This document shows positions 46,003-54,645 of a stretch of 57,870 bases of DNA, piece by piece; the stretch's first letter is position 1, and every line of letters begins with the position of its first letter. The notes beneath the pieces were generated by a model that was not told the origin of the DNA, made no database searches, and saw nothing but the letters and a program-made list of their open reading frames with translations. Origin of the DNA: Streptosporangiaceae bacterium (lineage in GTDB: Bacteria; Actinomycetota; Actinomycetes; Streptosporangiales; JBOHCT01); NCBI GenBank assembly GCA_050699055.1, contig JBOHCT010000001.1, positions 1 through 57,870 on the forward strand, read 5' to 3'. The position numbers were made by a program, and so were the translations under genes.

Positions 46003-47037
46003 TCAGGTGGACTCGCGGACGATGAGCTCAGGCTGGAAGACCACGTGCCGATGCGTGTGGTGGCCGGTGTCCTCGGCTTCGTTCAGGGCGGGCTCGGCCG
46101 CCGTCTGGCCGAGCAGCAGTCGCGGCTGGCGTACGGACGTCATGGGCACGGCGGCCGATGCCGCGAACTCGATGTCGTCGTAGCCGACCACCGCGGTGTC
46201 CTTGGGGATACCGACCCCGTCTTCCAGCAGGGTACGCATCACGCCGAGGGCGAGGAGATCGTTGGCGCAGAACACAGCCGTCGGCGGGGAGCCCGACGCG
46301 AGGAGGCGCCTGCCGGCGTCCCTGCCCGCGCCAGCGTTCATCGCGGGCTGCTCGACGGCGGCGAGCGCGTCCTCGCTCAGGCTGGCCCGGCGCAGCGCGC
46401 GCACCGCACCCTCGCGCCGGTCGCGGCACTGCTTGATTGCCAGCGGCCCGGTGACGTAGGTGAAGGCCCGGTGCCCCTTCCGGAGCAGATGGCTGGCCGC
46501 GAGGTCGCCGCCGGCGATGTCATCGATGGAGACCGAGCACTGGTCGGACCTGCTCGACTGACGGTCGAGCAGGACGACGGCCATGCCGCGGCGATGCAGC
46601 TGGACGAGTCGCTCGTGCGAAACATCGATCGGGGTGATGAGGAGCGCCTGTACCCGCTGCTCCTCGAGCAGAGCAAGGTAACGCCGCTCGCTTTCGCCGG
46701 AGTCGTCGCTGCTGCAGAGAATGACGGCGAGCCCCTCATTGCCGGCCGTGACGCTGACCCCACGGGCTACGTCGGTGAAGAAGGGGTTGGCCACGTCCAG
46801 GACGACCAGGCCGATGGTACGACTGCGACCAGCCCTCAGCTGGCGTGCCGACTCGTTTCGCACGAACCCGAGGTCATCGATGGCCGCGAGAACTCTGCCC
46901 CGGGTGCCTTCGGACACGAGATCAGGGTGGTTGAGGACATTGGAGACCGTGCCAACGGACACTCCCGCCCGCGCCGCGACTTCGCGGATGCTGGTGGAAC
47001 GACCCAAGGCCCCCTGCACTATCCCCGTTTGCGTCAT
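46003..47037 (-). CDS. LacI-family transcriptional regulator
   Basis: SIREVAARAGVSVGTVSNVLN HTH plus a periplasmic-binding-protein-like effector domain. 344 aa. Confidence 0.9.
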   Translation of the reverse strand: MTQTGIVQGALGRSTSIREVAARAGVSVGTVSNVLNHPDLVSEGTRGRVLAAIDDLGFVRNESARQLRAGRSRTIGLVVLDVANPFFTDVARGVSVTAGNEGLAVILCSSDDSGESERRYLALLEEQRVQALLITPIDVSHERLVQLHRRGMAVVLLDRQSSRSDQCSVSIDDIAGGDLAASHLLRKGHRAFTYVTGPLAIKQCRDRREGAVRALRRASLSEDALAAVEQPAMNAGAGRDAGRRLLASGSPPTAVFCANDLLALGVMRTLLEDGVGIPKDTAVVGYDDIEFAASAAVPMTSVRQPRLLLGQTAAEPALNEAEDTGHHTHRHVVFQPELIVREST

Positions 47038-47085
47038 TGTGGCACGAAGATCCTGTCCCGCTACGTCACATTCCGCTTAAGGCCC

Positions 47086-47144
47086 TTGACGCACCGTCAG
47101 ACTGGTCCTAGCGTCACCGCAAGCGTCTATCTTGAAACGATTCA
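47086..47144 (+). promoter_or_regulatory. Candidate rightward promoter TTGACG-N17-TAGCGT followed by a LacI-type half-palindrome TGAAACGATTCA
   Basis: -35 at 47086-47091, -10 at 47109-47114, operator-like site at 47133-47144. Read directly. Confidence 0.35.
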
Positions 47145-47391
47145 CGGGTCGGCTACGTGACCCGGGGAGGCCAGGTGGAGGGTGCGAGCACCGGAGCGGC
47201 CCATGGCCCGGAACTGGGTGTACTGGGCCCGGCGGTGGCGCTCCACCCTGCCTCCGTCCCTGGCGCTGTCATCCTCGCGCCCGTTCGCCCAGACTCTACG
47301 TCGCGGCCCGTCGAGCCACGGCCAGACACTCGCCGTCTGCCCGGTCGCATGGGGTCGATTATTGGCATGGCGCCGGAACTGGGTCTGGGTG

Positions 47392-47411
47392 GTACGACAA
47401 CGTTGTCGTAC
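47392..47411. promoter_or_regulatory. 20-bp perfect palindrome GTACGACAACGTTGTCGTAC (operator candidate, CG-centred as in LacI-family sites)
   Basis: Read directly. Lies in the 490-bp non-coding region between the LacI and LuxR genes. Confidence 0.45.
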
Positions 47412-47530
47412 ACAGTAGACATGTATCCCGAGGGATCAGTCCGTCACGGTTCCCGTTTCCGGGGCCAGGTCGTGTTGCCCACGTACACACGTGTGAGGTG
47501 GGGTGTTTCGGAGGAGCAGGGAGGTCAGGA

Positions 47531-47758
47531 GTGAAGCAGGCAGTTCTGGAGCGACAGCTCCTCTCGCCGCAGCTCGGCGAGGAGGAGATCGAGCTCCTTT
47601 CTCACCTAGCGAGTGGCATGACAGCCGACGTCGCGGCCCGTCGCCTGGATCTGAGCTCGCGGACGCTTCGCCGCAGGGTACGGGCGATCTGCGACAAGCT
47701 CGATGTCAACACTCCGATTGAGGCGGTGGTCTGGGCGGCCAAACGCGGCTTCATCTAG
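47531..47758 (+). CDS. LuxR/GerE-family HTH protein (75 aa, DNA-binding domain only)
   Basis: EEIELLSHLASGMTADVAARRLDLSSRTLRRRVRAICDKLDVNTPIEAVVWAAKRGFI. GTG 47531 preceded by ggagcagggagg. The rest of ORF 47132-47758 is not protein-like. Confidence 0.7.
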   Translation: MKQAVLERQLLSPQLGEEEIELLSHLASGMTADVAARRLDLSSRTLRRRVRAICDKLDVNTPIEAVVWAAKRGFI

Positions 47759-48069
47759 TGGGCGTGGTCGAACTGAGCGGCGCGCCGACGAGCCTGGCGG
47801 TCTCGGACCCCGCCCCGTCGCCAAGATCCCCGCAGGACGGCCCCGACAGGAGCGACTCGCACACCGGGCGCGATGGGTACCCCCTCCACCCACCGTCCGC
47901 GGCCCACGCGAGAGCGTTCTTGGGCGCCGACCCGGTGAAGGGCACCCGACACGCGACCGTGTGCCCTTCACCGGGCCCCAGACACAATTCGCCGCAGGAG
48001 CAACGGAGCCGCGATCGTTCTTCTAACATGACCCCCCGCAGGCTCCGCGACCGCGTGGATGGCAAACAC

Positions 48070-48465
48070 ATGATGATGCTGAGCTGGGATGAGCGCGGTA
48101 GCCTCGCGCCCGTCTCGTCGAAAGAGGAGCTCGACCGCCTGCTCGATGACGTCAGCGGTCAGGCGGCCGATGGCGGCAGCCCGTGCATGGCGACGATGCT
48201 CGACGCCGACGACCCCGAGGGACCCGCGCTGTCGATCGGTTGCGGTGCCTCCGTGAGCGTGGCGGTGTGGCAGTTGCCGTCCGCTCCGACATCCCTTGTC
48301 AGCCACGGCGAGGCCGAACGGGAGCCGCTCGTCTTCTCCTACTGCGGCGAGGACGCGACGTATGACCCGCCGGCCGCGATCCCCAACGCCCAGGCGCGGG
48401 AAGCGATGCGCGCCTTCTACGCAACCGGTACCCGTCCCGACACCTTCGCCTGGCGGGAGCCCTAG
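48070..48465 (+). CDS. Imm1-family immunity protein (polymorphic-toxin immunity), orphan
   Basis: LSWDERGSLAPVSSKEELDRLLDDV...LSIGCGASVSVAVW...VSHGEAEREPLVFSYCGEDATYDPPAAIPNAQAREAMRAFYATGTRPDTFAWRE follows the Imm1 pattern as I recall it. Alternative start ATG 48028. Confidence 0.6.
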   Translation: MMMLSWDERGSLAPVSSKEELDRLLDDVSGQAADGGSPCMATMLDADDPEGPALSIGCGASVSVAVWQLPSAPTSLVSHGEAEREPLVFSYCGEDATYDPPAAIPNAQAREAMRAFYATGTRPDTFAWREP

Positions 48466-48795
48466 TGTCGCGTGTCGGAGGTCCTTTGCCAGTGGCGGTG
48501 ATCCAGGCGGATGGATCGCAAGGCGGAGGAAGGAGGCGCAGTGGGCCCTGCGTCGAGTGACGACAACGCGGCGAGGCGCCGCCTGGGCGTCGCCAGGGTG
48601 AAGAAGACTTCCGGCACGCGACACTAGCTCAACACAGTCCAGCCCAGCGGGCCCAGCCGGCGCCTCGTCGGGCTGAATATGCACCCGTGCACGCGACAGC
48701 CGCCACGGAGGCACACTTCAGCCCGCCGCGGGCTGTCCCGCGGCGGGGCGGCGCAGGGCCCCGAGGGGGTGGGCGCCGAAGGCGCGTCCGGGCCC

Positions 48796-49899
48796 CTACG
48801 CCACGCGGACGGCTCCCGAGTAATCTCCCCCGCCGTCAACCGGCTCCACCTGAACCGTGGTCCCCGTGTAGGGCGCGTTGATCATCTTGCCGTTACCGAC
48901 GTAGATGCCGACGTGGTGATGGTCGGGGTAGTAGAACACAAGGTCGCCGGGCTGCAGCTCGCTGCGGGAGACGTGCGGCCCAGCGGTCCACAGCGCGCCC
49001 GTGTAGTGGGGAAGGCTGATACCCACCTGTTTGTACGACCAGACCACCAGCCCGGAGCAGTCGAACGAGTCGGGCCCCGCGGCGCCCCATACGTAAGGAG
49101 TCCCGATCTTGCTGAGCGCGGCCTGCGCCGCCGCCGCCCCCTTGCCCGACCCCGGGACGCTCGGGCCTGAGGAGGCAGACGACGGGTCGGTCGTCGCGGC
49201 CGTCGCGGTCGTCGCGCTCCGGCTGGCGCGCTCCTGCTGACGCTCCTCGATCCGCTGCTGACGCTGGCGTTCAAGTGCCTTCAGGTGAGCGAGCTCCTGC
49301 TGGGACTCGCCCAGCAGGTGCTTGATGCGCCGTTTCTTCGCGCCGAGGTCGCTGGTGATCTTCTTGACCTTCGCGGCCCGGTGCCTGGCCTCGGCCGCCA
49401 CCTGCTTGCTGCGTGCGAGCTCATCGCGCAGTTCCCGCAGCTTGGCGGAGTTCTGCCGGCTCAGCTGCCCGAACGTGGCCGCGCGGTCGACGAGGTCTTG
49501 CGGGCTGTCGACGGACGACAGCATCTGAACAGCCGGACTTACCGAGCCCGCCTTGTACTGCGCGGCGGCGATACGACCGACCTGCGCCCGTGCTTTCTCC
49601 GCCCGCTTCCGCAGGTCCTCGGCCCGCTGCCGGGTCCTGCGCGCTTCGCGTCTCGCCCTGGCGAGCTTGAGCTTCTGACCGTTGTACCGCTCAGTGACCA
49701 CTTCCGCCTTGTTCGCGAGCTTCTCGACCTTCGCGCGGAGGTCGTGAATGCTCGGCTTTGGCTCCGCCCGTACCGCACCGCCCGGGACGAGGGCGATCAC
49801 CAGACCGGCGACGCACGCGCCGACGCCGAGATGTCGGGCGAGCCGAGTGGGGTGGTACCAGGGACTGCGCGACTCCGAGCTTTGGCTCGAACGCTGCAC
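48796..49899 (-). CDS. Secreted coiled-coil NlpC/P60 peptidoglycan endopeptidase
   Basis: Signal/TM HLGVGACVAGLVIALVPGGAV, coiled coil, C-terminal GTPYVWGAAGPDSFDCSGL...HHVGIYVGNG. GTG start preceded by gaaggagaggag. Confidence 0.88.
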   Translation of the reverse strand: MQRSSQSSESRSPWYHPTRLARHLGVGACVAGLVIALVPGGAVRAEPKPSIHDLRAKVEKLANKAEVVTERYNGQKLKLARARREARRTRQRAEDLRKRAEKARAQVGRIAAAQYKAGSVSPAVQMLSSVDSPQDLVDRAATFGQLSRQNSAKLRELRDELARSKQVAAEARHRAAKVKKITSDLGAKKRRIKHLLGESQQELAHLKALERQRQQRIEERQQERASRSATTATAATTDPSSASSGPSVPGSGKGAAAAQAALSKIGTPYVWGAAGPDSFDCSGLVVWSYKQVGISLPHYTGALWTAGPHVSRSELQPGDLVFYYPDHHHVGIYVGNGKMINAPYTGTTVQVEPVDGGGDYSGAVRVA

Positions 49900-49917
49900 G
49901 GACGCTCCTCTCCTTCG

Positions 49918-50042
49918 CGCCTACCGGGTTAGCTGACGGGTTCGGGCCGGAGATCGCCCTACCGCACGGCTGAACCGCGCGGACTCACCCCAGGGAACTG
50001 GGTCCCCGGCTCCCCGGAGCCTTGGCCTCCAGGGACTCGGCG
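49918..50042 (-). promoter_or_regulatory. ydaO/yuaA-type cyclic-di-AMP riboswitch in the 5' leader of the NlpC/P60 gene
   Basis: The minus-strand RNA contains CGCCGAGUCC...GAGCCGGGGACCCA...CUGGGGUGAGUCC...CCCGAACCCGUCAGCUAACCCGGUAGGCG. These match the conserved ydaO cores (GGGGACCCA, UGGGGUGA, CCGAACCCGnCAGCUAACC) and P1 closing CGCC/GGCG. The SD follows immediately. Confidence 0.8.
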
Positions 50043-50301
50043 TTGTCCTTTCTCGATCAATAGCCTGTCGCACGTTAGTGGAGCGGTGTGGGGCGCTCAA
50101 CCGAAACGGCCTTTTACGGACATGACATGTTCGCGTTCGCCCGATAATTCACTTAGTGTCGTTTTCGCCGCGTTTCCGCGGTCGCACGACGCACTTCTCC
50201 TTGGCCCCGCGGGCCGTCCGCCTGGCTCACGGGGGCACAGAGCACGTCCCGACGCGACACTTGAGACTCGCCGCCGTGAGCTCCGATAGGCTGCGCGTTC
50301 C

Positions 50302-50891: not shown

Positions 50892-53800
50892 TCAGAGCAG
50901 GCGGAGCTGACGGTCTCGCGGACGCCTCGGGCGCGCCGGAGCATCGCGTTCCAGCAGGGAGTCGTCGATGGCCGCGAGAAACGGTGAGGGGCGGCGGTCG
51001 CGGAGCTCTCCCTGGCGGGTGCGACACCGGGCGTGACTCACGAACAGCCGCGACCGTGCCCGCGTCACGCCGACGAAGAACAGCCGGCGCTCCTCGGCCT
51101 CGTCGCCGCTCCGCGTCTCGCCGGGCCAGCGCAGCGGGAGGAGGCCGGCCTCGCAGCCGACGATGAAGACCACGCGGAACTCCAGACCCTTCGCGGCATG
51201 CAGCGTGAGCAGCGAGGCCCGGTCGGCGCGCGGATCGAGGGTGTCGACCTCGGCGCCGAGGGCCAACTCGGTGAGGAAGTGCTCGAGATCCCGGCCGCAC
51301 CGTTCGGCGAGTGGCACCAGCAGTTCCGCCGCGCCCCGGATGTCGGTCGCCAGTTCCTCTTCCGACGCGGGCAGCCGAGCGGCGACCGCCCGGGCCGCGT
51401 CGTGCGGCCGCGTACCGCCGCGCCGCCGCAGCTCCGCCACGACCTCGGCGACTCCGGGGCGGTCGGCGAGACGGTCGTGGGACCGCTTCTGGAACGGCAC
51501 ACCCGCGCGGCCGAACGCCTCCATGATCGGCCTGGCCTGGGCGGCGGTGCGGTAGAGGACGGCGATATCGGAGAACCCGATGACCTCGCTCGGGTCGTCG
51601 CCCGCCCGGCCGCTGTCGAGTGAGTGGAAGGAGGAGCCGCCGAGGAGCTGGTCGATCGTGCGTGCGACGAACGACGCCTCGTCCTGCTCGTCGGCGGCCG
51701 CGTAGACACCGATCGGTCCGGCGTCGGGACGGGTGGGGCGCAGCGCCCTGTCGCGTACGAGCGTCGCGGGCGCGATGATCTGCCGCGCCGCGGTGACGAC
51801 TGTGGGGCTGGAGCGGTAGTTACGGGTGAGCTGGACCGCGGACGCGGTCGGGTAGTCGTCCCGGAACCGCAGGAAGAAGCCGACGTCGGCGCCCCTGAAA
51901 CCGTAGATCGCCTGGTCGGGATCGCCGATCGCGGTGAGGCGAGCCTCGGGGCGGGTGAGCAGCCGCAGCAGCGTGTACTGTCGCTCGTCGATGTCCTGGT
52001 ACTCGTCGACGAACGTCCACGGGAAGCGTTCGCGGTAGTGTTCGGCGAGGCCGGGCTCGGCGGAGAGAAGAGCGACGGGCAGGTCGATCAGGTCGTCGAA
52101 GTCGACAAGGTCCCGTTCCCGTAGCGCCTTGGTGTAGCGGGCCCGAAGCTCGGCGTCGCCGCCGAGCTCGGAAAGCATCCGTCGGGCTTCTCGCGGTGAG
52201 GCGGCGAGCTCCTCGGCCACCGCGAGACGGTCGTCGTCGCTCGCGACGCGGAAGCGGTCGGTGAGTCCCGTACCCGCGTGCTGCTCGCGCAGGATCCGCA
52301 CGCCCAGCCCGTGGAAGGTGGTGATCGTGAGGCGCTCCACCTGCCGGGGGACGAGGATCGCCAGCCGATCCCGCATCTCCTCGCAGGCCCGCCGGGTGAA
52401 GGTGATCGCGAGACAGTCTTCTGGCGGGGTTCCGCGTTCGGTCAGCAGGTGCGCGATGCGGTGCGCGAGAGTGCGGGTCTTACCGGTGCCCGGACCGGCC
52501 ACGATGAGGAGCGGACCGTCGGCCGCGCCGGCCGCCGCGCGCTGGTCGGGATCGAGGCCGGACAGGAGCGAGTCGCCGCCTATAGGGAAAACATCGCCGC
52601 CCGCCCCCTGGCCGGAGCCCGGCACGGGCTTCTCCTCGTCCTCTTTCGCGGATCTTGAACTCATCGGGGTGTTGTGACCGTTTGGGCGCCAGGCAACCTC
52701 GAGCTCGGCAGGGTAGGGGCGCTCGGTGGCGGCCGGGGGTCCCGGCGCCTGCGCGGCCGGCTCGACGAGCTCGAACAGTGTGGGGGCCGCTCCCCGGCGC
52801 CGCAGCTCACCGGGACGGAAAAGCCGGATGACCCCGTACTCACCGTCGAAGCCGGCCTCGCGAGTGACCTGACCCCTGCGCAGCCGGCCGATCGCCTCGG
52901 CGAGTACGGCCGAGTCCGCCGCCGCGATGTCGTCGAGCGGTGCGTGCTCGAGGATCGAGAGCTCAGGTCCCAGGCGCGCGACGAGGTCGGCGACCTGTCC
53001 CGCGACGCGCTTGCTCTTGGCCCCCACCCCGCGGATCTCGCCGATGATCTCGGCGAGTGGCACAAGGTTGCGGAAGCTTCCCGCGCCTTCCTGGCGAGCG
53101 CCGGTGGGGCGGTCGGCCAGCTCCTCCACGCGGTGGAGGACCCCGACGGTGAGCGGCTTGGCGCAGGCGGGACAGCGCGCGTCGCGCGCACGGGTCTCGG
53201 CGGGCTCGAGGCGTACGCCGCACTTGCGGTGACCGTCCAGGTGATACTTGCCTTCCTGGGGAAAGAACTCCACGGTTCCGAGAAGACCGTCGCCGGTCTC
53301 CACCGCGCGACGGATCGCGAAGTAATCGAGGGATGTTTCGAAGATCGTCGCTTCTCGTCCGAGCATGGGCGGGGAGTGGGCATCGGAGTTGCTCACGAGG
53401 CGGTATCGGTCGAGAGCGGAGAGCCGCCAGTTCATCGGCGGGTCGGACGACAGCCCCGTTTCGACAGCCGAGATGTGGTCGGCAAGATCGGCATAACAGT
53501 GAGCGACGGCGTCGAATCCGGACTTGGAGCCCAGCGCGGAGAACCACGGTGTCCAAATGTGTGCGGGGACGAGGTAGGAGCCCGGGTCGCTCTCCAGGGT
53601 GATCTCGAGAAGGTCGCGCGAGTCGAGCCCGAGGATCGGACGGCCGTCGGAGGCGAGGTTCCCGATCTTCGCGAGGGCACGGGTGATGGCGTCCGCCGCC
53701 TCGAAGTGAGGGGCATAGAGGAGATGGTGGACCTTGCGTGTCCTGTCGTCGCGTTTGTAGATCGTCGAGATCTCGACAGACAGCATGAAGCGTACGGGCT

Positions 53801-54152
53801 CCCGGCAGTTCGGCGGGAGCCGGCGCGATACGTCCGCCTCCAGGTCGTCGCGTAGCCGAAAGAGCCCCGGCTCCGCGGGTACGAGCGTGTCGCGGAGATG
53901 GTCGCACCACGCGGGATGGGTGAAGTCACCGGTCCCGAGTACATGGAGACCCTTGCGGCTCGCCCACCAGGCGAGGTGTTCGACGTCACAGTCCTTACTG
54001 CAGGCACGGGAGTACTTCGAGTGGATGTGGAGGTCGGCATAGAGCGGCACGTGCCGGATCCTTCCACGGACCGCCGCATTCGACGGGCAAAACGCGGGTT
54101 CGGGCGGGGGTGTCGTCCTCGGGTCCGCTCGCCGAGCCACCATCTGATCCAC
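50892..54152 (-). CDS. Fusion protein: EndoQ-like PHP-domain nuclease (TIGR00375-type) + UvrD/PcrA-type SF1 helicase
   Basis: N-terminal half: YADLHIHSKYSRACS, GTGDFTHP, PAHIWTPW, SNSDAHS, DGHRKCG...CPAC, GFDGEYGVIRLF. C-terminal half: AGPGTGKT, FVDEYQD, GDPDQAIYGFRGA, TRNYRS, TLHAAKGLEF, FFVGVTRAR. One uninterrupted 1086-codon ORF. Confidence 0.8.
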   Translation of the reverse strand: MDQMVARRADPRTTPPPEPAFCPSNAAVRGRIRHVPLYADLHIHSKYSRACSKDCDVEHLAWWASRKGLHVLGTGDFTHPAWCDHLRDTLVPAEPGLFRLRDDLEADVSRRLPPNCREPVRFMLSVEISTIYKRDDRTRKVHHLLYAPHFEAADAITRALAKIGNLASDGRPILGLDSRDLLEITLESDPGSYLVPAHIWTPWFSALGSKSGFDAVAHCYADLADHISAVETGLSSDPPMNWRLSALDRYRLVSNSDAHSPPMLGREATIFETSLDYFAIRRAVETGDGLLGTVEFFPQEGKYHLDGHRKCGVRLEPAETRARDARCPACAKPLTVGVLHRVEELADRPTGARQEGAGSFRNLVPLAEIIGEIRGVGAKSKRVAGQVADLVARLGPELSILEHAPLDDIAAADSAVLAEAIGRLRRGQVTREAGFDGEYGVIRLFRPGELRRRGAAPTLFELVEPAAQAPGPPAATERPYPAELEVAWRPNGHNTPMSSRSAKEDEEKPVPGSGQGAGGDVFPIGGDSLLSGLDPDQRAAAGAADGPLLIVAGPGTGKTRTLAHRIAHLLTERGTPPEDCLAITFTRRACEEMRDRLAILVPRQVERLTITTFHGLGVRILREQHAGTGLTDRFRVASDDDRLAVAEELAASPREARRMLSELGGDAELRARYTKALRERDLVDFDDLIDLPVALLSAEPGLAEHYRERFPWTFVDEYQDIDERQYTLLRLLTRPEARLTAIGDPDQAIYGFRGADVGFFLRFRDDYPTASAVQLTRNYRSSPTVVTAARQIIAPATLVRDRALRPTRPDAGPIGVYAAADEQDEASFVARTIDQLLGGSSFHSLDSGRAGDDPSEVIGFSDIAVLYRTAAQARPIMEAFGRAGVPFQKRSHDRLADRPGVAEVVAELRRRGGTRPHDAARAVAARLPASEEELATDIRGAAELLVPLAERCGRDLEHFLTELALGAEVDTLDPRADRASLLTLHAAKGLEFRVVFIVGCEAGLLPLRWPGETRSGDEAEERRLFFVGVTRARSRLFVSHARCRTRQGELRDRRPSPFLAAIDDSLLERDAPARPRRPRDRQLRLL
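52648..52673. repeat. Family 1 repeat, half copy (5' arm + core start), embedded in the nuclease-helicase linker coding sequence
   Basis: gcggatcttgaactcatcggggtgtt versus copy A gccgatcttgaacttatcggggggtt (23/26 identical). Confidence 0.6.
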
Positions 54153-54571
54153 GGGTGAGTCCTATGCCCGGTTTGTTCTGGTCTGGACCGAGTGCCTTTC
54201 TGTCTCGCGGAGCGCGCGCGATCCTGCACTCAGGAGGCCGGCTGGCGGGGGGCAGGACTGCGCTCCCCGCCTTACGCTAGTCGCGGATCGCGCGGATAGG
54301 CGCCGGCCAAGGGAGCCGGTCAGCTGAGGAGCCGGCGATCCCGGCAGTTCCGTCTTCACGAACTGTCACAATGGCTTCGTCCCGCCGATCCCCGGCCGGC
54401 GACTTGGGGCCCGCGAGTAGGCCCTCGAGTAGGGCCCGCGTGTTGGAGCCGAAGCCGCCACGGTGGCACAACGACGACCATCCGGGGACTAACCATAGAA
54501 GTGGGTGAATCGTTTCGGGCTGGTTACGTCCGGTTACACACCGTATCCGGCGACTTGAGGCGCGCGGCTAA

Positions 54572-54601
54572 TTGGCAATGGGCGTGAAAGGGGTATATGT
54601 T
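54572..54601 (+). promoter_or_regulatory. Candidate lsr2 promoter TTGGCA-N18-TATGTT
   Basis: Read directly in the relatively AT-rich segment about 45 nt upstream of ATG 54646. Confidence 0.3.
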
Positions 54602-54645
54602 TGTTCTCCAACTAAGGGTGTCTCTCGGCGTTCGAAAGGATTCCC

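Follow-up and report, generated by a model that had tools for sequence, protein, structure and literature searches.

An endonuclease Q-like nuclease fused to a UvrD/PcrA-type helicase in a Streptosporangiaceae bacterium: a candidate clamp-tethered nick-and-unwind repair enzyme

A stretch of 57,870 nucleotides from a Streptosporangiaceae bacterium (GenBank assembly GCA_050699055.1, contig JBOHCT010000001.1, positions 1 to 57,870; the whole stretch is called the window below) contains a gene for a single protein in which two kinds of DNA-processing enzyme are joined. The N-terminal half is a relative of endonuclease Q (EndoQ), and the C-terminal half is a superfamily 1A (SF1A) helicase of the UvrD/PcrA type. 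The fusion is a widespread combination of relatives of two well-known families that has apparently gone unstudied experimentally. We consider it probable that it is a housekeeping repair enzyme in which one polypeptide, tethered to the sliding clamp, nicks DNA at deoxyuridine (dU), deoxyinosine (dI) and apurinic or apyrimidinic (AP) sites and unwinds it from there. This reading is carried by the identity of the domains, by intact catalytic, lesion-pocket and motor residues, by conserved sequence motifs, by a wide distribution, by a core-genome position, and by the lack of a conserved partner gene.

The gene lies on the minus strand, where positions 50892..54152 form one long open reading frame (ORF) of 1086 codons from the first GTG, with zero internal stops. 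A plus-strand reading of 50892-54152 was rejected, as that frame is full of stops. The first-pass annotation had described a protein of 1086 amino acids; the continuous, stop-free frame stands, but the length is probably 1052 amino acids. Translation probably starts at the GTG at 54050, on which three observations agree: the public gene model P0001 from the same contig, which is 1052 amino acids long and labelled 'UvrD-helicase domain-containing protein'; the N-termini of homologs, which read M-x-F-Y-A-D-L-H-I-H-S, with the alignment opening at residues 1-4; and a GGAAGGA element 8 nucleotides upstream of the GTG (54059..54065, minus strand), read from the sequence as a putative Shine-Dalgarno site. 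The first 34 codons of the longer frame are probably not translated, and the probable coding sequence, 1052 codons plus stop, occupies 50892..54050. Residue numbers given here refer to the 1052-residue protein unless stated otherwise. All twelve motifs quoted in the first-pass annotation are present in the minus-strand translation (YADLHIHSKYS, GTGDFTHP, AHIWTPW, NSDAHS, DGHRKCG...CPAC, GFDGEYGVIRLF, AGPGTGKT, DEYQD, TRNYRS, LHAAKGLEF and VGVTRAR). That annotation had missed which strand the gene is on, its probable start codon and the conserved beta-clamp-binding motifs. At 0.69-0.70, the gene's G+C content is the same as the window's.

The N-terminal half (residues 1-412) had been proposed to be a TIGR00375/EndoQ homolog, and database comparisons agree. 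In a phmmer search of the PDB, EndoQ of Pyrococcus furiosus (PfuEndoQ) is matched at E=3.1e-42 (entry 5ZB8; 7K30-7K33 also at ~3e-42), residues 39-444 in the 1086-residue numbering aligning to residues 5-382 of the 400 in the chain, so that all three EndoQ domains are taken in. These are the PHP catalytic domain (residues 1-263; 53262..54050, minus strand), the Zn-binding domain with its H274-C277...C293-C296 site (residues 264-330; 53061..53261, minus strand), as well as the C-terminal helical domain (residues 331-412; 52815..53060, minus strand), which aligns to PfuEndoQ 304-382 and ends in the GFDGEYGVIRLF beta-hairpin motif. Near the end of the module G400, D402, G403 and G406 are invariant in alignments of representatives. 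The NCBIfam model TIGR00375 is matched at E=9.7e-45, with 153.5 bits against a curated cutoff of 326.6. A local copy of Pfam-A gives only a weak PHP_C match to this half, and precomputed annotations of homologs name a newer Pfam family, PF27218. Sequence identity to characterised EndoQ is ~29%.

The residues that matter for catalysis are kept in spite of this distance. In the Pfu enzyme the metal ligands are H8, H10, E76, H84, H139, D193 and H195, and the damaged-base pocket is made up of H139, T142, E167, L168, G169, L170, N191 and D193, with W144 nearby; thymine and adenine are sterically excluded by H139, G169 and S171 (PMC5961232, PMC8307549). All metal ligands of the window protein (H8, H10, E93, H108, H164, D223 and H225) are identical to those of PfuEndoQ, and so are the pocket residues T167, W169, E197, G199, L200, S201 and N221. 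The sole difference among ligands and pocket is a Thr at the position of L168. Conservation was followed through 124 representatives, which are full-length fusion proteins from separate 50%-identity clusters. All 124 have the metal ligands and the pocket T, E, G, L and S; the equivalent of W144 is kept in 114 and that of N191 in 106. The zinc site reads HCCC, compared with the C4 site of archaeal EndoQ (C249, C252, C268 and C271), so that three Cys are kept and Zn binding is plausible from the sequence. The His at the first ligand position (residue 274, window ~53229-53231, minus strand), where archaeal EndoQ has Cys, is found in 121 of the 124 representatives, and may be a signature separating the fused family from stand-alone EndoQ. 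Judged by residue conservation, this half is a genuine EndoQ relative that appears to be active; by the curated threshold it is not an ortholog.

The C-terminal half (residues ~496-1035) matches Pfam UvrD-helicase at 8.7e-63 (213 bits, cutoff 23), UvrD_C at 1.9e-34 (120 bits, cutoff 25.6) and AAA_19 at 3.9e-25. In the PDB it matches PcrA (1PJR, E=1.4e-81) and UvrD of Deinococcus radiodurans, Escherichia coli and Mycobacterium tuberculosis (~1e-72 to 1e-80); identity to UvrD, PcrA and Rep is 28-32%. The NCBIfam models for PcrA, Rep and UvrD score between 297 and 390 bits, with PcrA at 390.5 against an equivalog cutoff of 911.2 and UvrD at 297 against 1144. The helicase core spans residues 496-1035 (50946..52565, minus strand) on the evidence of Pfam, PDB PcrA and Foldseek, and within it lie motifs Q (Q503), I (GPGTGKT, 519-525), Ia, II (DEYQD, 682-686), III (GDPDQ, 709-713), IV (NYRS, 744-747), V (HAAKGLE, 951-957) and VI (VGVTRAR, 993-999). 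Key catalytic residues in motifs Q, I, Ia and II-VI are invariant or nearly so among the 124 representatives. The description of this half as a compact SF1 helicase with motifs I-VI is accurate, and from its sequence it would be expected to translocate and unwind 3'->5' in an ATP-dependent manner.

The compactness shows in a comparison with PcrA. The protein aligns to PcrA residues 6-128, 178-400 and 529-650, and the alignment gap leaves a remnant of the 2B domain of ~44 amino acids (residues ~876-919; 51294..51425, minus strand) where PcrA has ~128 (401-528), a stretch that makes up the greater part of its 2B. Motifs IV and V are 207 amino acids apart here and 200-242 apart in 52 actinobacterial homologs, compared with 280 in PcrA, and the 2B domain of the actinobacterial clade is ~73-84 amino acids shorter than that of PcrA. 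A truncation shared by the whole family was considered and rejected, as the shortening is confined to certain clades, the actinobacterial one among them, and roughly half of the wider family has a motif IV to V spacing of 280, like PcrA. In about half of the lineages outside the Actinobacteria, among loci L005-L080, the fused homologs retain a PcrA-like full-length 2B. The clade-specific loss, ~70-80 amino acids in actinobacterial homologs, suggests clade-specific changes in helicase regulation. Past PcrA residue 650, where the C-terminal tail of PcrA lies, nothing in the protein aligns, and no RNA polymerase (RNAP)- or UvrB-binding extension aligns either. A Pfam scan of the protein finds no RecB-type PD-(D/E)xK nuclease domain, and the C-terminus comes ~50 amino acids after motif VI.

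Between the two halves lies a Pro/Ala-rich low-complexity linker (residues 413-495; 52566..52814, minus strand), recognised by gap-rich, poorly conserved alignment columns and by a predicted local distance difference test (pLDDT) value below 50 at residues 421-492. It contains an internal clamp-binding-like motif (residues 421-426; 52773..52790, minus strand), for which the family consensus is GQxSLF and the verified translation here is AAPTLF. In the columns of this motif Q is found in 73%, L in 76% and F in 77% of representatives, and a strict Qxx[LMIV]F is present at the site in 59 of 123. The motif comes directly after the EndoQ module, which is the position of the PIP box in archaeal EndoQ. 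There the C-terminal PIP box binds PCNA, which stimulates the enzyme, and a beta-clamp motif consensus has been described in the C-terminal region of bacterial homologs (PMC4858679). A second motif, QLRLL, forms the last five residues of the window protein (50895..50909, minus strand), with QLxLF, a canonical clamp-binding pentapeptide resembling QL[SD]LF, as the family consensus. The pattern Q[LM]x[LM][FL] is found within the final 10 amino acids of 83 of the 124 representatives (exactly terminal in 57), and a relaxed form in 106, whereas it occurs in 0.07% of internal 10-residue windows, an enrichment of ~1000-fold at the C-terminus. Among the aligned actinobacterial sequences Q1048 and L1051 never vary, and L1049 is kept in at least 90%. 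Both motifs are present in 46 representatives, and a chain with two of them could fill both clefts of the clamp dimer. From these patterns we infer that the fusion binds the beta clamp (DnaN).

An AlphaFold model of the full protein was built with 52 homologs in the alignment, and its helicase half is good. In a Foldseek search the model retrieves UvrD, PcrA and Rep at ~1e-34, with target-normalised template-modelling (TM) scores up to 0.69. PfuEndoQ 5ZB8 is retrieved at E=5.8e-16 with a low TM-score, that part of the model being poor. No PDB entry spanning both halves was found by Foldseek.

The implied rarity of the architecture does not hold. In a scan of one genome per species there are at least 549 confirmed relatives, belonging to more than 10 phyla among the matches listed. 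Full-length matches (query 1-1052), again among the matches listed, come from Actinomycetes, Sorangium, Gastranaerophilales, Elusimicrobia, Spirochaetota, Desulfobacterota, Planctomycetota (Planctomycetia), Calditrichia/Caldithrix, Chloroflexota (Caldilineaceae), Acidobacteriota, Nitrospinota, Cloacimonas and Poribacteria. For the whole protein, at least 120 full-length relatives have 59-65% identity, in Streptosporangiales, Pseudonocardiales, Nitriliruptorales and others. In the source databases the relatives are labelled 'UvrD-helicase domain-containing protein', 'TIGR00375 family protein' or 'DNA 3'-5' helicase'. When the EndoQ half was compared with 1.84 billion cluster representatives, 3764 matches were obtained at E<=1e-3 and 1112 at E<=1e-30. 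Among the best 150 EndoQ-domain clusters, 125 are at least 900 amino acids long, and the EndoQ module is always N-terminal. Close relatives shorter than 900 amino acids mostly have ends that look out of frame or truncated and are apparently fragments or frameshifted calls; no clear adjacent split gene pair was seen among them. On this comparative evidence the fusion is both ancient and widespread.

The surroundings of the gene likewise differ from what had been proposed. The first-pass annotation had placed it in an accessory islet next to lsr2; it sits instead in a conserved actinobacterial backbone, panC-coaX-lysS...lsr2-clpC1, which is a core-genome position. The Pfam-based neighbour order in the window is DUF2520/Rossmann protein, pantothenate kinase coaX, LysS, LacI-family regulator, GerE-like ORF, Imm1 ORF, NlpC/P60 protein, GNAT acetyltransferase, fusion, lsr2 and clpC1 (for panC and coaX the coordinates come from the ORF list). 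The GNAT gene is convergent with the fusion gene, and lsr2 is divergent across a spacer of ~600 bp, followed by clpC1. In tblastn searches of the neighbours against 80 related loci, the order GNAT-fusion-lsr2-clpC1 was found in three other genomes (L001; L003, Salinactinospora; and L026). In L003 and L026 lysS is only 1.2-1.7 kb past GNAT, so that the variable islet is the part at 46.0-49.9 kb and not the fusion gene. ORFs within 5 kb of the fusion gene were also clustered across the 80 loci; no cluster occurs in more than 6 of them, and those that are shared track taxonomy. That no partner gene is conserved is in keeping with a self-contained nick-and-unwind enzyme.

How such an enzyme might work can be outlined from its parts. 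The EndoQ module would flip a dU, dI or AP site into its pocket and incise the strand directly 5' of the lesion, in the manner of the archaeal and Bacillus enzymes, which would produce a 3'-OH end and a lesion-bearing 5'-phosphate. The SF1A motor, on its flexible linker of ~80 amino acids, would then engage the nick, most likely running 3'->5' on the intact strand and peeling the lesion-bearing 5' end into a flap. The flap would be trimmed by a 5' nuclease or Pol I, the gap filled by a polymerase and the nick sealed by ligase. The terminal QLRLL, in many relatives together with the internal GQxSLF, would tether the enzyme to the beta sliding clamp, which would recruit or stimulate it and link the reaction with replication or with repair synthesis, in parallel to the part that PCNA plays for archaeal EndoQ. 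Substrate specificity, unwinding from the nick and its direction, clamp binding and the downstream steps are predictions of this scheme.

The second step has parallels elsewhere. In rolling-circle replication PcrA acts behind the Rep nickases RepC and RepD, and in mismatch repair UvrD acts behind MutH/MutL; in both a site-specific nick is made, after which an SF1A helicase loads and displaces the nicked strand, and in mismatch repair the beta clamp takes part. Those systems consist of separate interacting proteins, whereas the fusion is one chain whose nick site is predicted to be set by the damaged base. Another archaeal-type repair endonuclease of Actinobacteria, NucS/EndoMS, resembles the fusion in having the beta clamp as a partner through a C-terminal motif, but it has an unrelated fold, makes double-strand cuts at mismatches and has no fused helicase. 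UvrD, PcrA and Rep share with the window protein all helicase motifs and the 1A/1B/2A fold; the N-terminal nuclease, the C-terminal clamp motif, the short 2B and the lack of an alignable RNAP- or UvrB-binding extension set it apart. Characterised EndoQ proteins (Pfu, Tko, Mac, Bacillus pumilus and B. subtilis; 5ZB8 and 7K30-7K33) have the same three-domain layout, the same ligands and pocket, and a clamp motif right after the module. They are stand-alone proteins of ~400-430 amino acids with a C4 Zn site, whereas the window protein has HCCC and continues into the linker and a helicase of ~550 amino acids. The archaeal model gives the task of displacing the strand after incision to PolB together with Fen1 (PMC4858679); the fusion has a built-in dedicated motor instead.

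Several features of the protein and of its gene weigh against reading it as a clamp-tethered repair enzyme. The scores below the TIGR00375, PcrA and UvrD cutoffs make the fusion, by these models, a relative of both families and an ortholog of neither. The internal motif of the window protein is degenerate and without Gln, and the terminal one closes in Leu and not Phe. In the AlphaFold model residues 164-270 of the PHP barrel, like the linker, have pLDDT below 50, and the model gives no reliable interdomain geometry, so that communication between the domains cannot be read from it. Which way the motor unwinds from the nick is an assumption made by analogy. In the intergenic region 54051-54645 neither a LexA box (TCGAAC-N4-GTTCGA, up to 3 mismatches) nor a PafBC/RecA-NDp promoter (up to 2 mismatches) was found, and regulation consequently gives no independent sign of a role in repair. 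Literature searches returned no biochemical or genetic data for any member of the fused family.

Other explanations of the architecture have to be weighed against the nick-and-unwind enzyme. The helicase half might mainly be a translocase that scans DNA, removes proteins or recycles product-bound EndoQ, and so drives lesion search or turnover. UvrD-family monomers are often translocases or protein-displacement motors, and the shortened 2B and the lack of an alignable RNAP-binding tail indicate a motor that has diverged from canonical UvrD/PcrA. All residues for ATP hydrolysis and translocation on single-stranded DNA are kept, however, which is compatible with both roles, and in Rep removal of 2B activates unwinding and does not abolish it; we regard a mainly translocating role as unlikely. 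Rather unlikely, too, is a helicase-nuclease that processes DNA ends or forks, in which the PHP domain would be an exonuclease or a structure-specific nuclease, as in AddAB, AdnAB and RecBCD or in the PHP exonucleases of PolX and DnaE. PHP domains of other proteins are exonucleases, fusions of UvrD-superfamily helicases with nucleases are the classic machines of double-strand-break resection, Foldseek also retrieves AdnB, AddA and RecB, and the clamp motifs would suit a fork-associated role as well. AddAB, AdnAB and RecBCD share with the fusion the covalent joining of a UvrD-superfamily motor to a nuclease, but they are multi-subunit enzymes of double-strand ends whose PD-(D/E)xK nuclease is C-terminal in AddA, RecB and AdnB; the window protein has no such domain and no conserved partner subunit, and its nuclease is N-terminal. 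That nuclease is moreover a full three-domain EndoQ with invariant pocket residues, including those equivalent to H139, G169 and S171 that exclude thymine and adenine (PMC8307549). As the window comes from a metagenome-assembled genome, one could also suspect that a sequencing error has joined two adjacent ordinary genes, but the chance of this is minute: genomes of isolates and complete chromosomes, such as those of Sorangium, Amycolatopsis and Streptoalloteichus, encode the same continuous architecture, as do hundreds of metagenome-assembled genomes. The stop or frameshift that the first-pass annotation had named as a way to refute the fusion is excluded by these hundreds of genomes.

A role in defence against phages or other foreign DNA, which had been suggested by analogy to Gabija and Nhi, appears improbable to us. 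In such a one-protein analogue EndoQ would nick invading DNA that contains uracil or is otherwise atypical, for the helicase to unwind or degrade. According to a review, an antiviral role has in fact been suggested for bacterial EndoQ, and Ugi, the inhibitor made by phage PBS1, does not block the B. subtilis enzyme (PMC8307549). Gabija (GajA and GajB) and Nhi, like the fusion, pair a nuclease with an SF1 helicase, and PADLOC matches its GajB and DRT-associated helicase models to the helicase half, the highest score being 264 bits; ~2.4 kb beyond the 3' end of the fusion gene there are also a variable segment and an immunity gene of the Imm1 type. These matches, the only ones from PADLOC, are of a kind that UvrD-like helicases give in general, and they score lower than the PcrA match. 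At the locus there is no GajA/OLD-type nuclease, other defence partner or defence-island context, the immediate neighbours being GNAT and Lsr2, and the adjacency to lsr2-clpC1, the lack of a conserved neighbour in the 80 loci and the native G+C content all speak against such a role. Searched by tblastn, 50,697 phage records contain nothing that matches the EndoQ half, and 72,556 plasmids contain a single match, annotated 'endonuclease Q family protein' and encoded as a stand-alone gene on a Brevibacillus replicon of 733 kb. Conserved clamp-binding motifs, finally, are typical of replication and repair factors, and the analogy to Gabija and Nhi is not borne out.

Some features around the gene deserve mention in their own right. 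The intergenic region 54051-54645 between the fusion gene and lsr2 is unusually long (~600 bp) and has one sigma-70-like promoter match (54572-54601, plus strand), which faces lsr2. The variable block between lysS and GNAT (window 46003-49899, ~4.4 kb) is made up of the LacI regulator, the GerE-like ORF, the Imm1 ORF (47758-48465, plus strand), which has no obvious toxin partner nearby, and the NlpC/P60 hydrolase ORF (48796-49899, minus strand). Directly upstream of the hydrolase lies a cyclic di-AMP (c-di-AMP) riboswitch of the ydaO type (RF00379, 89.9 bits, 49903-50052, minus strand). A c-di-AMP riboswitch ahead of an NlpC/P60 cell-wall hydrolase is a known actinobacterial arrangement.

The statement that no protein of this architecture has been characterised agrees with our literature searches, which found no paper characterising one. 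Full-text searches, and the EndoQ papers and reviews consulted, with Shiraishi et al. 2017 outside this coverage, gave no mention of a helicase fusion. As summarised in PMC5961232, Shiraishi et al. 2017 (Biosci Biotechnol Biochem 81:931) divided EndoQ by domain organization into three families, of which 2 and 3 are bacterial. Their 'family 3' might be the EndoQ-helicase fusion, so that the architecture may already have been noted descriptively. New here are the conserved C-terminal and internal clamp-binding motifs, the shortened 2B of the actinobacterial clade and the lack of a C-terminal RNAP-binding tail that aligns to PcrA.

In several EndoQ papers (including PMC4858679) the steps after 5' incision are inferred. 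The occurrence, in hundreds of species, of a fusion with intact active sites and clamp motifs is strong comparative evidence for helicase-driven displacement on the clamp as the next step, and the fusion offers a single-protein system in which the downstream steps of EndoQ-initiated repair become testable. EndoQ-type repair is usually called archaeal, with 'a few' bacterial cases, but by this distribution it is common in bacteria. The gene in the window, labelled only 'UvrD-helicase domain-containing protein', now receives a confident functional annotation. Taken one step further, clamp-coupled incision by EndoQ followed by displacement by the helicase may constitute an excision route linked to replication, by which uracil, hypoxanthine and AP sites are removed in parallel to glycosylase-initiated base excision repair; this we put forward tentatively and hold to be possible, if somewhat doubtful. 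If true, such a route could matter most in those high-G+C Actinobacteria that lack MutS/MutL, and the fusion would be a 'Rosetta stone' for finding out which factors take over after an EndoQ nick in archaea and Bacillus.

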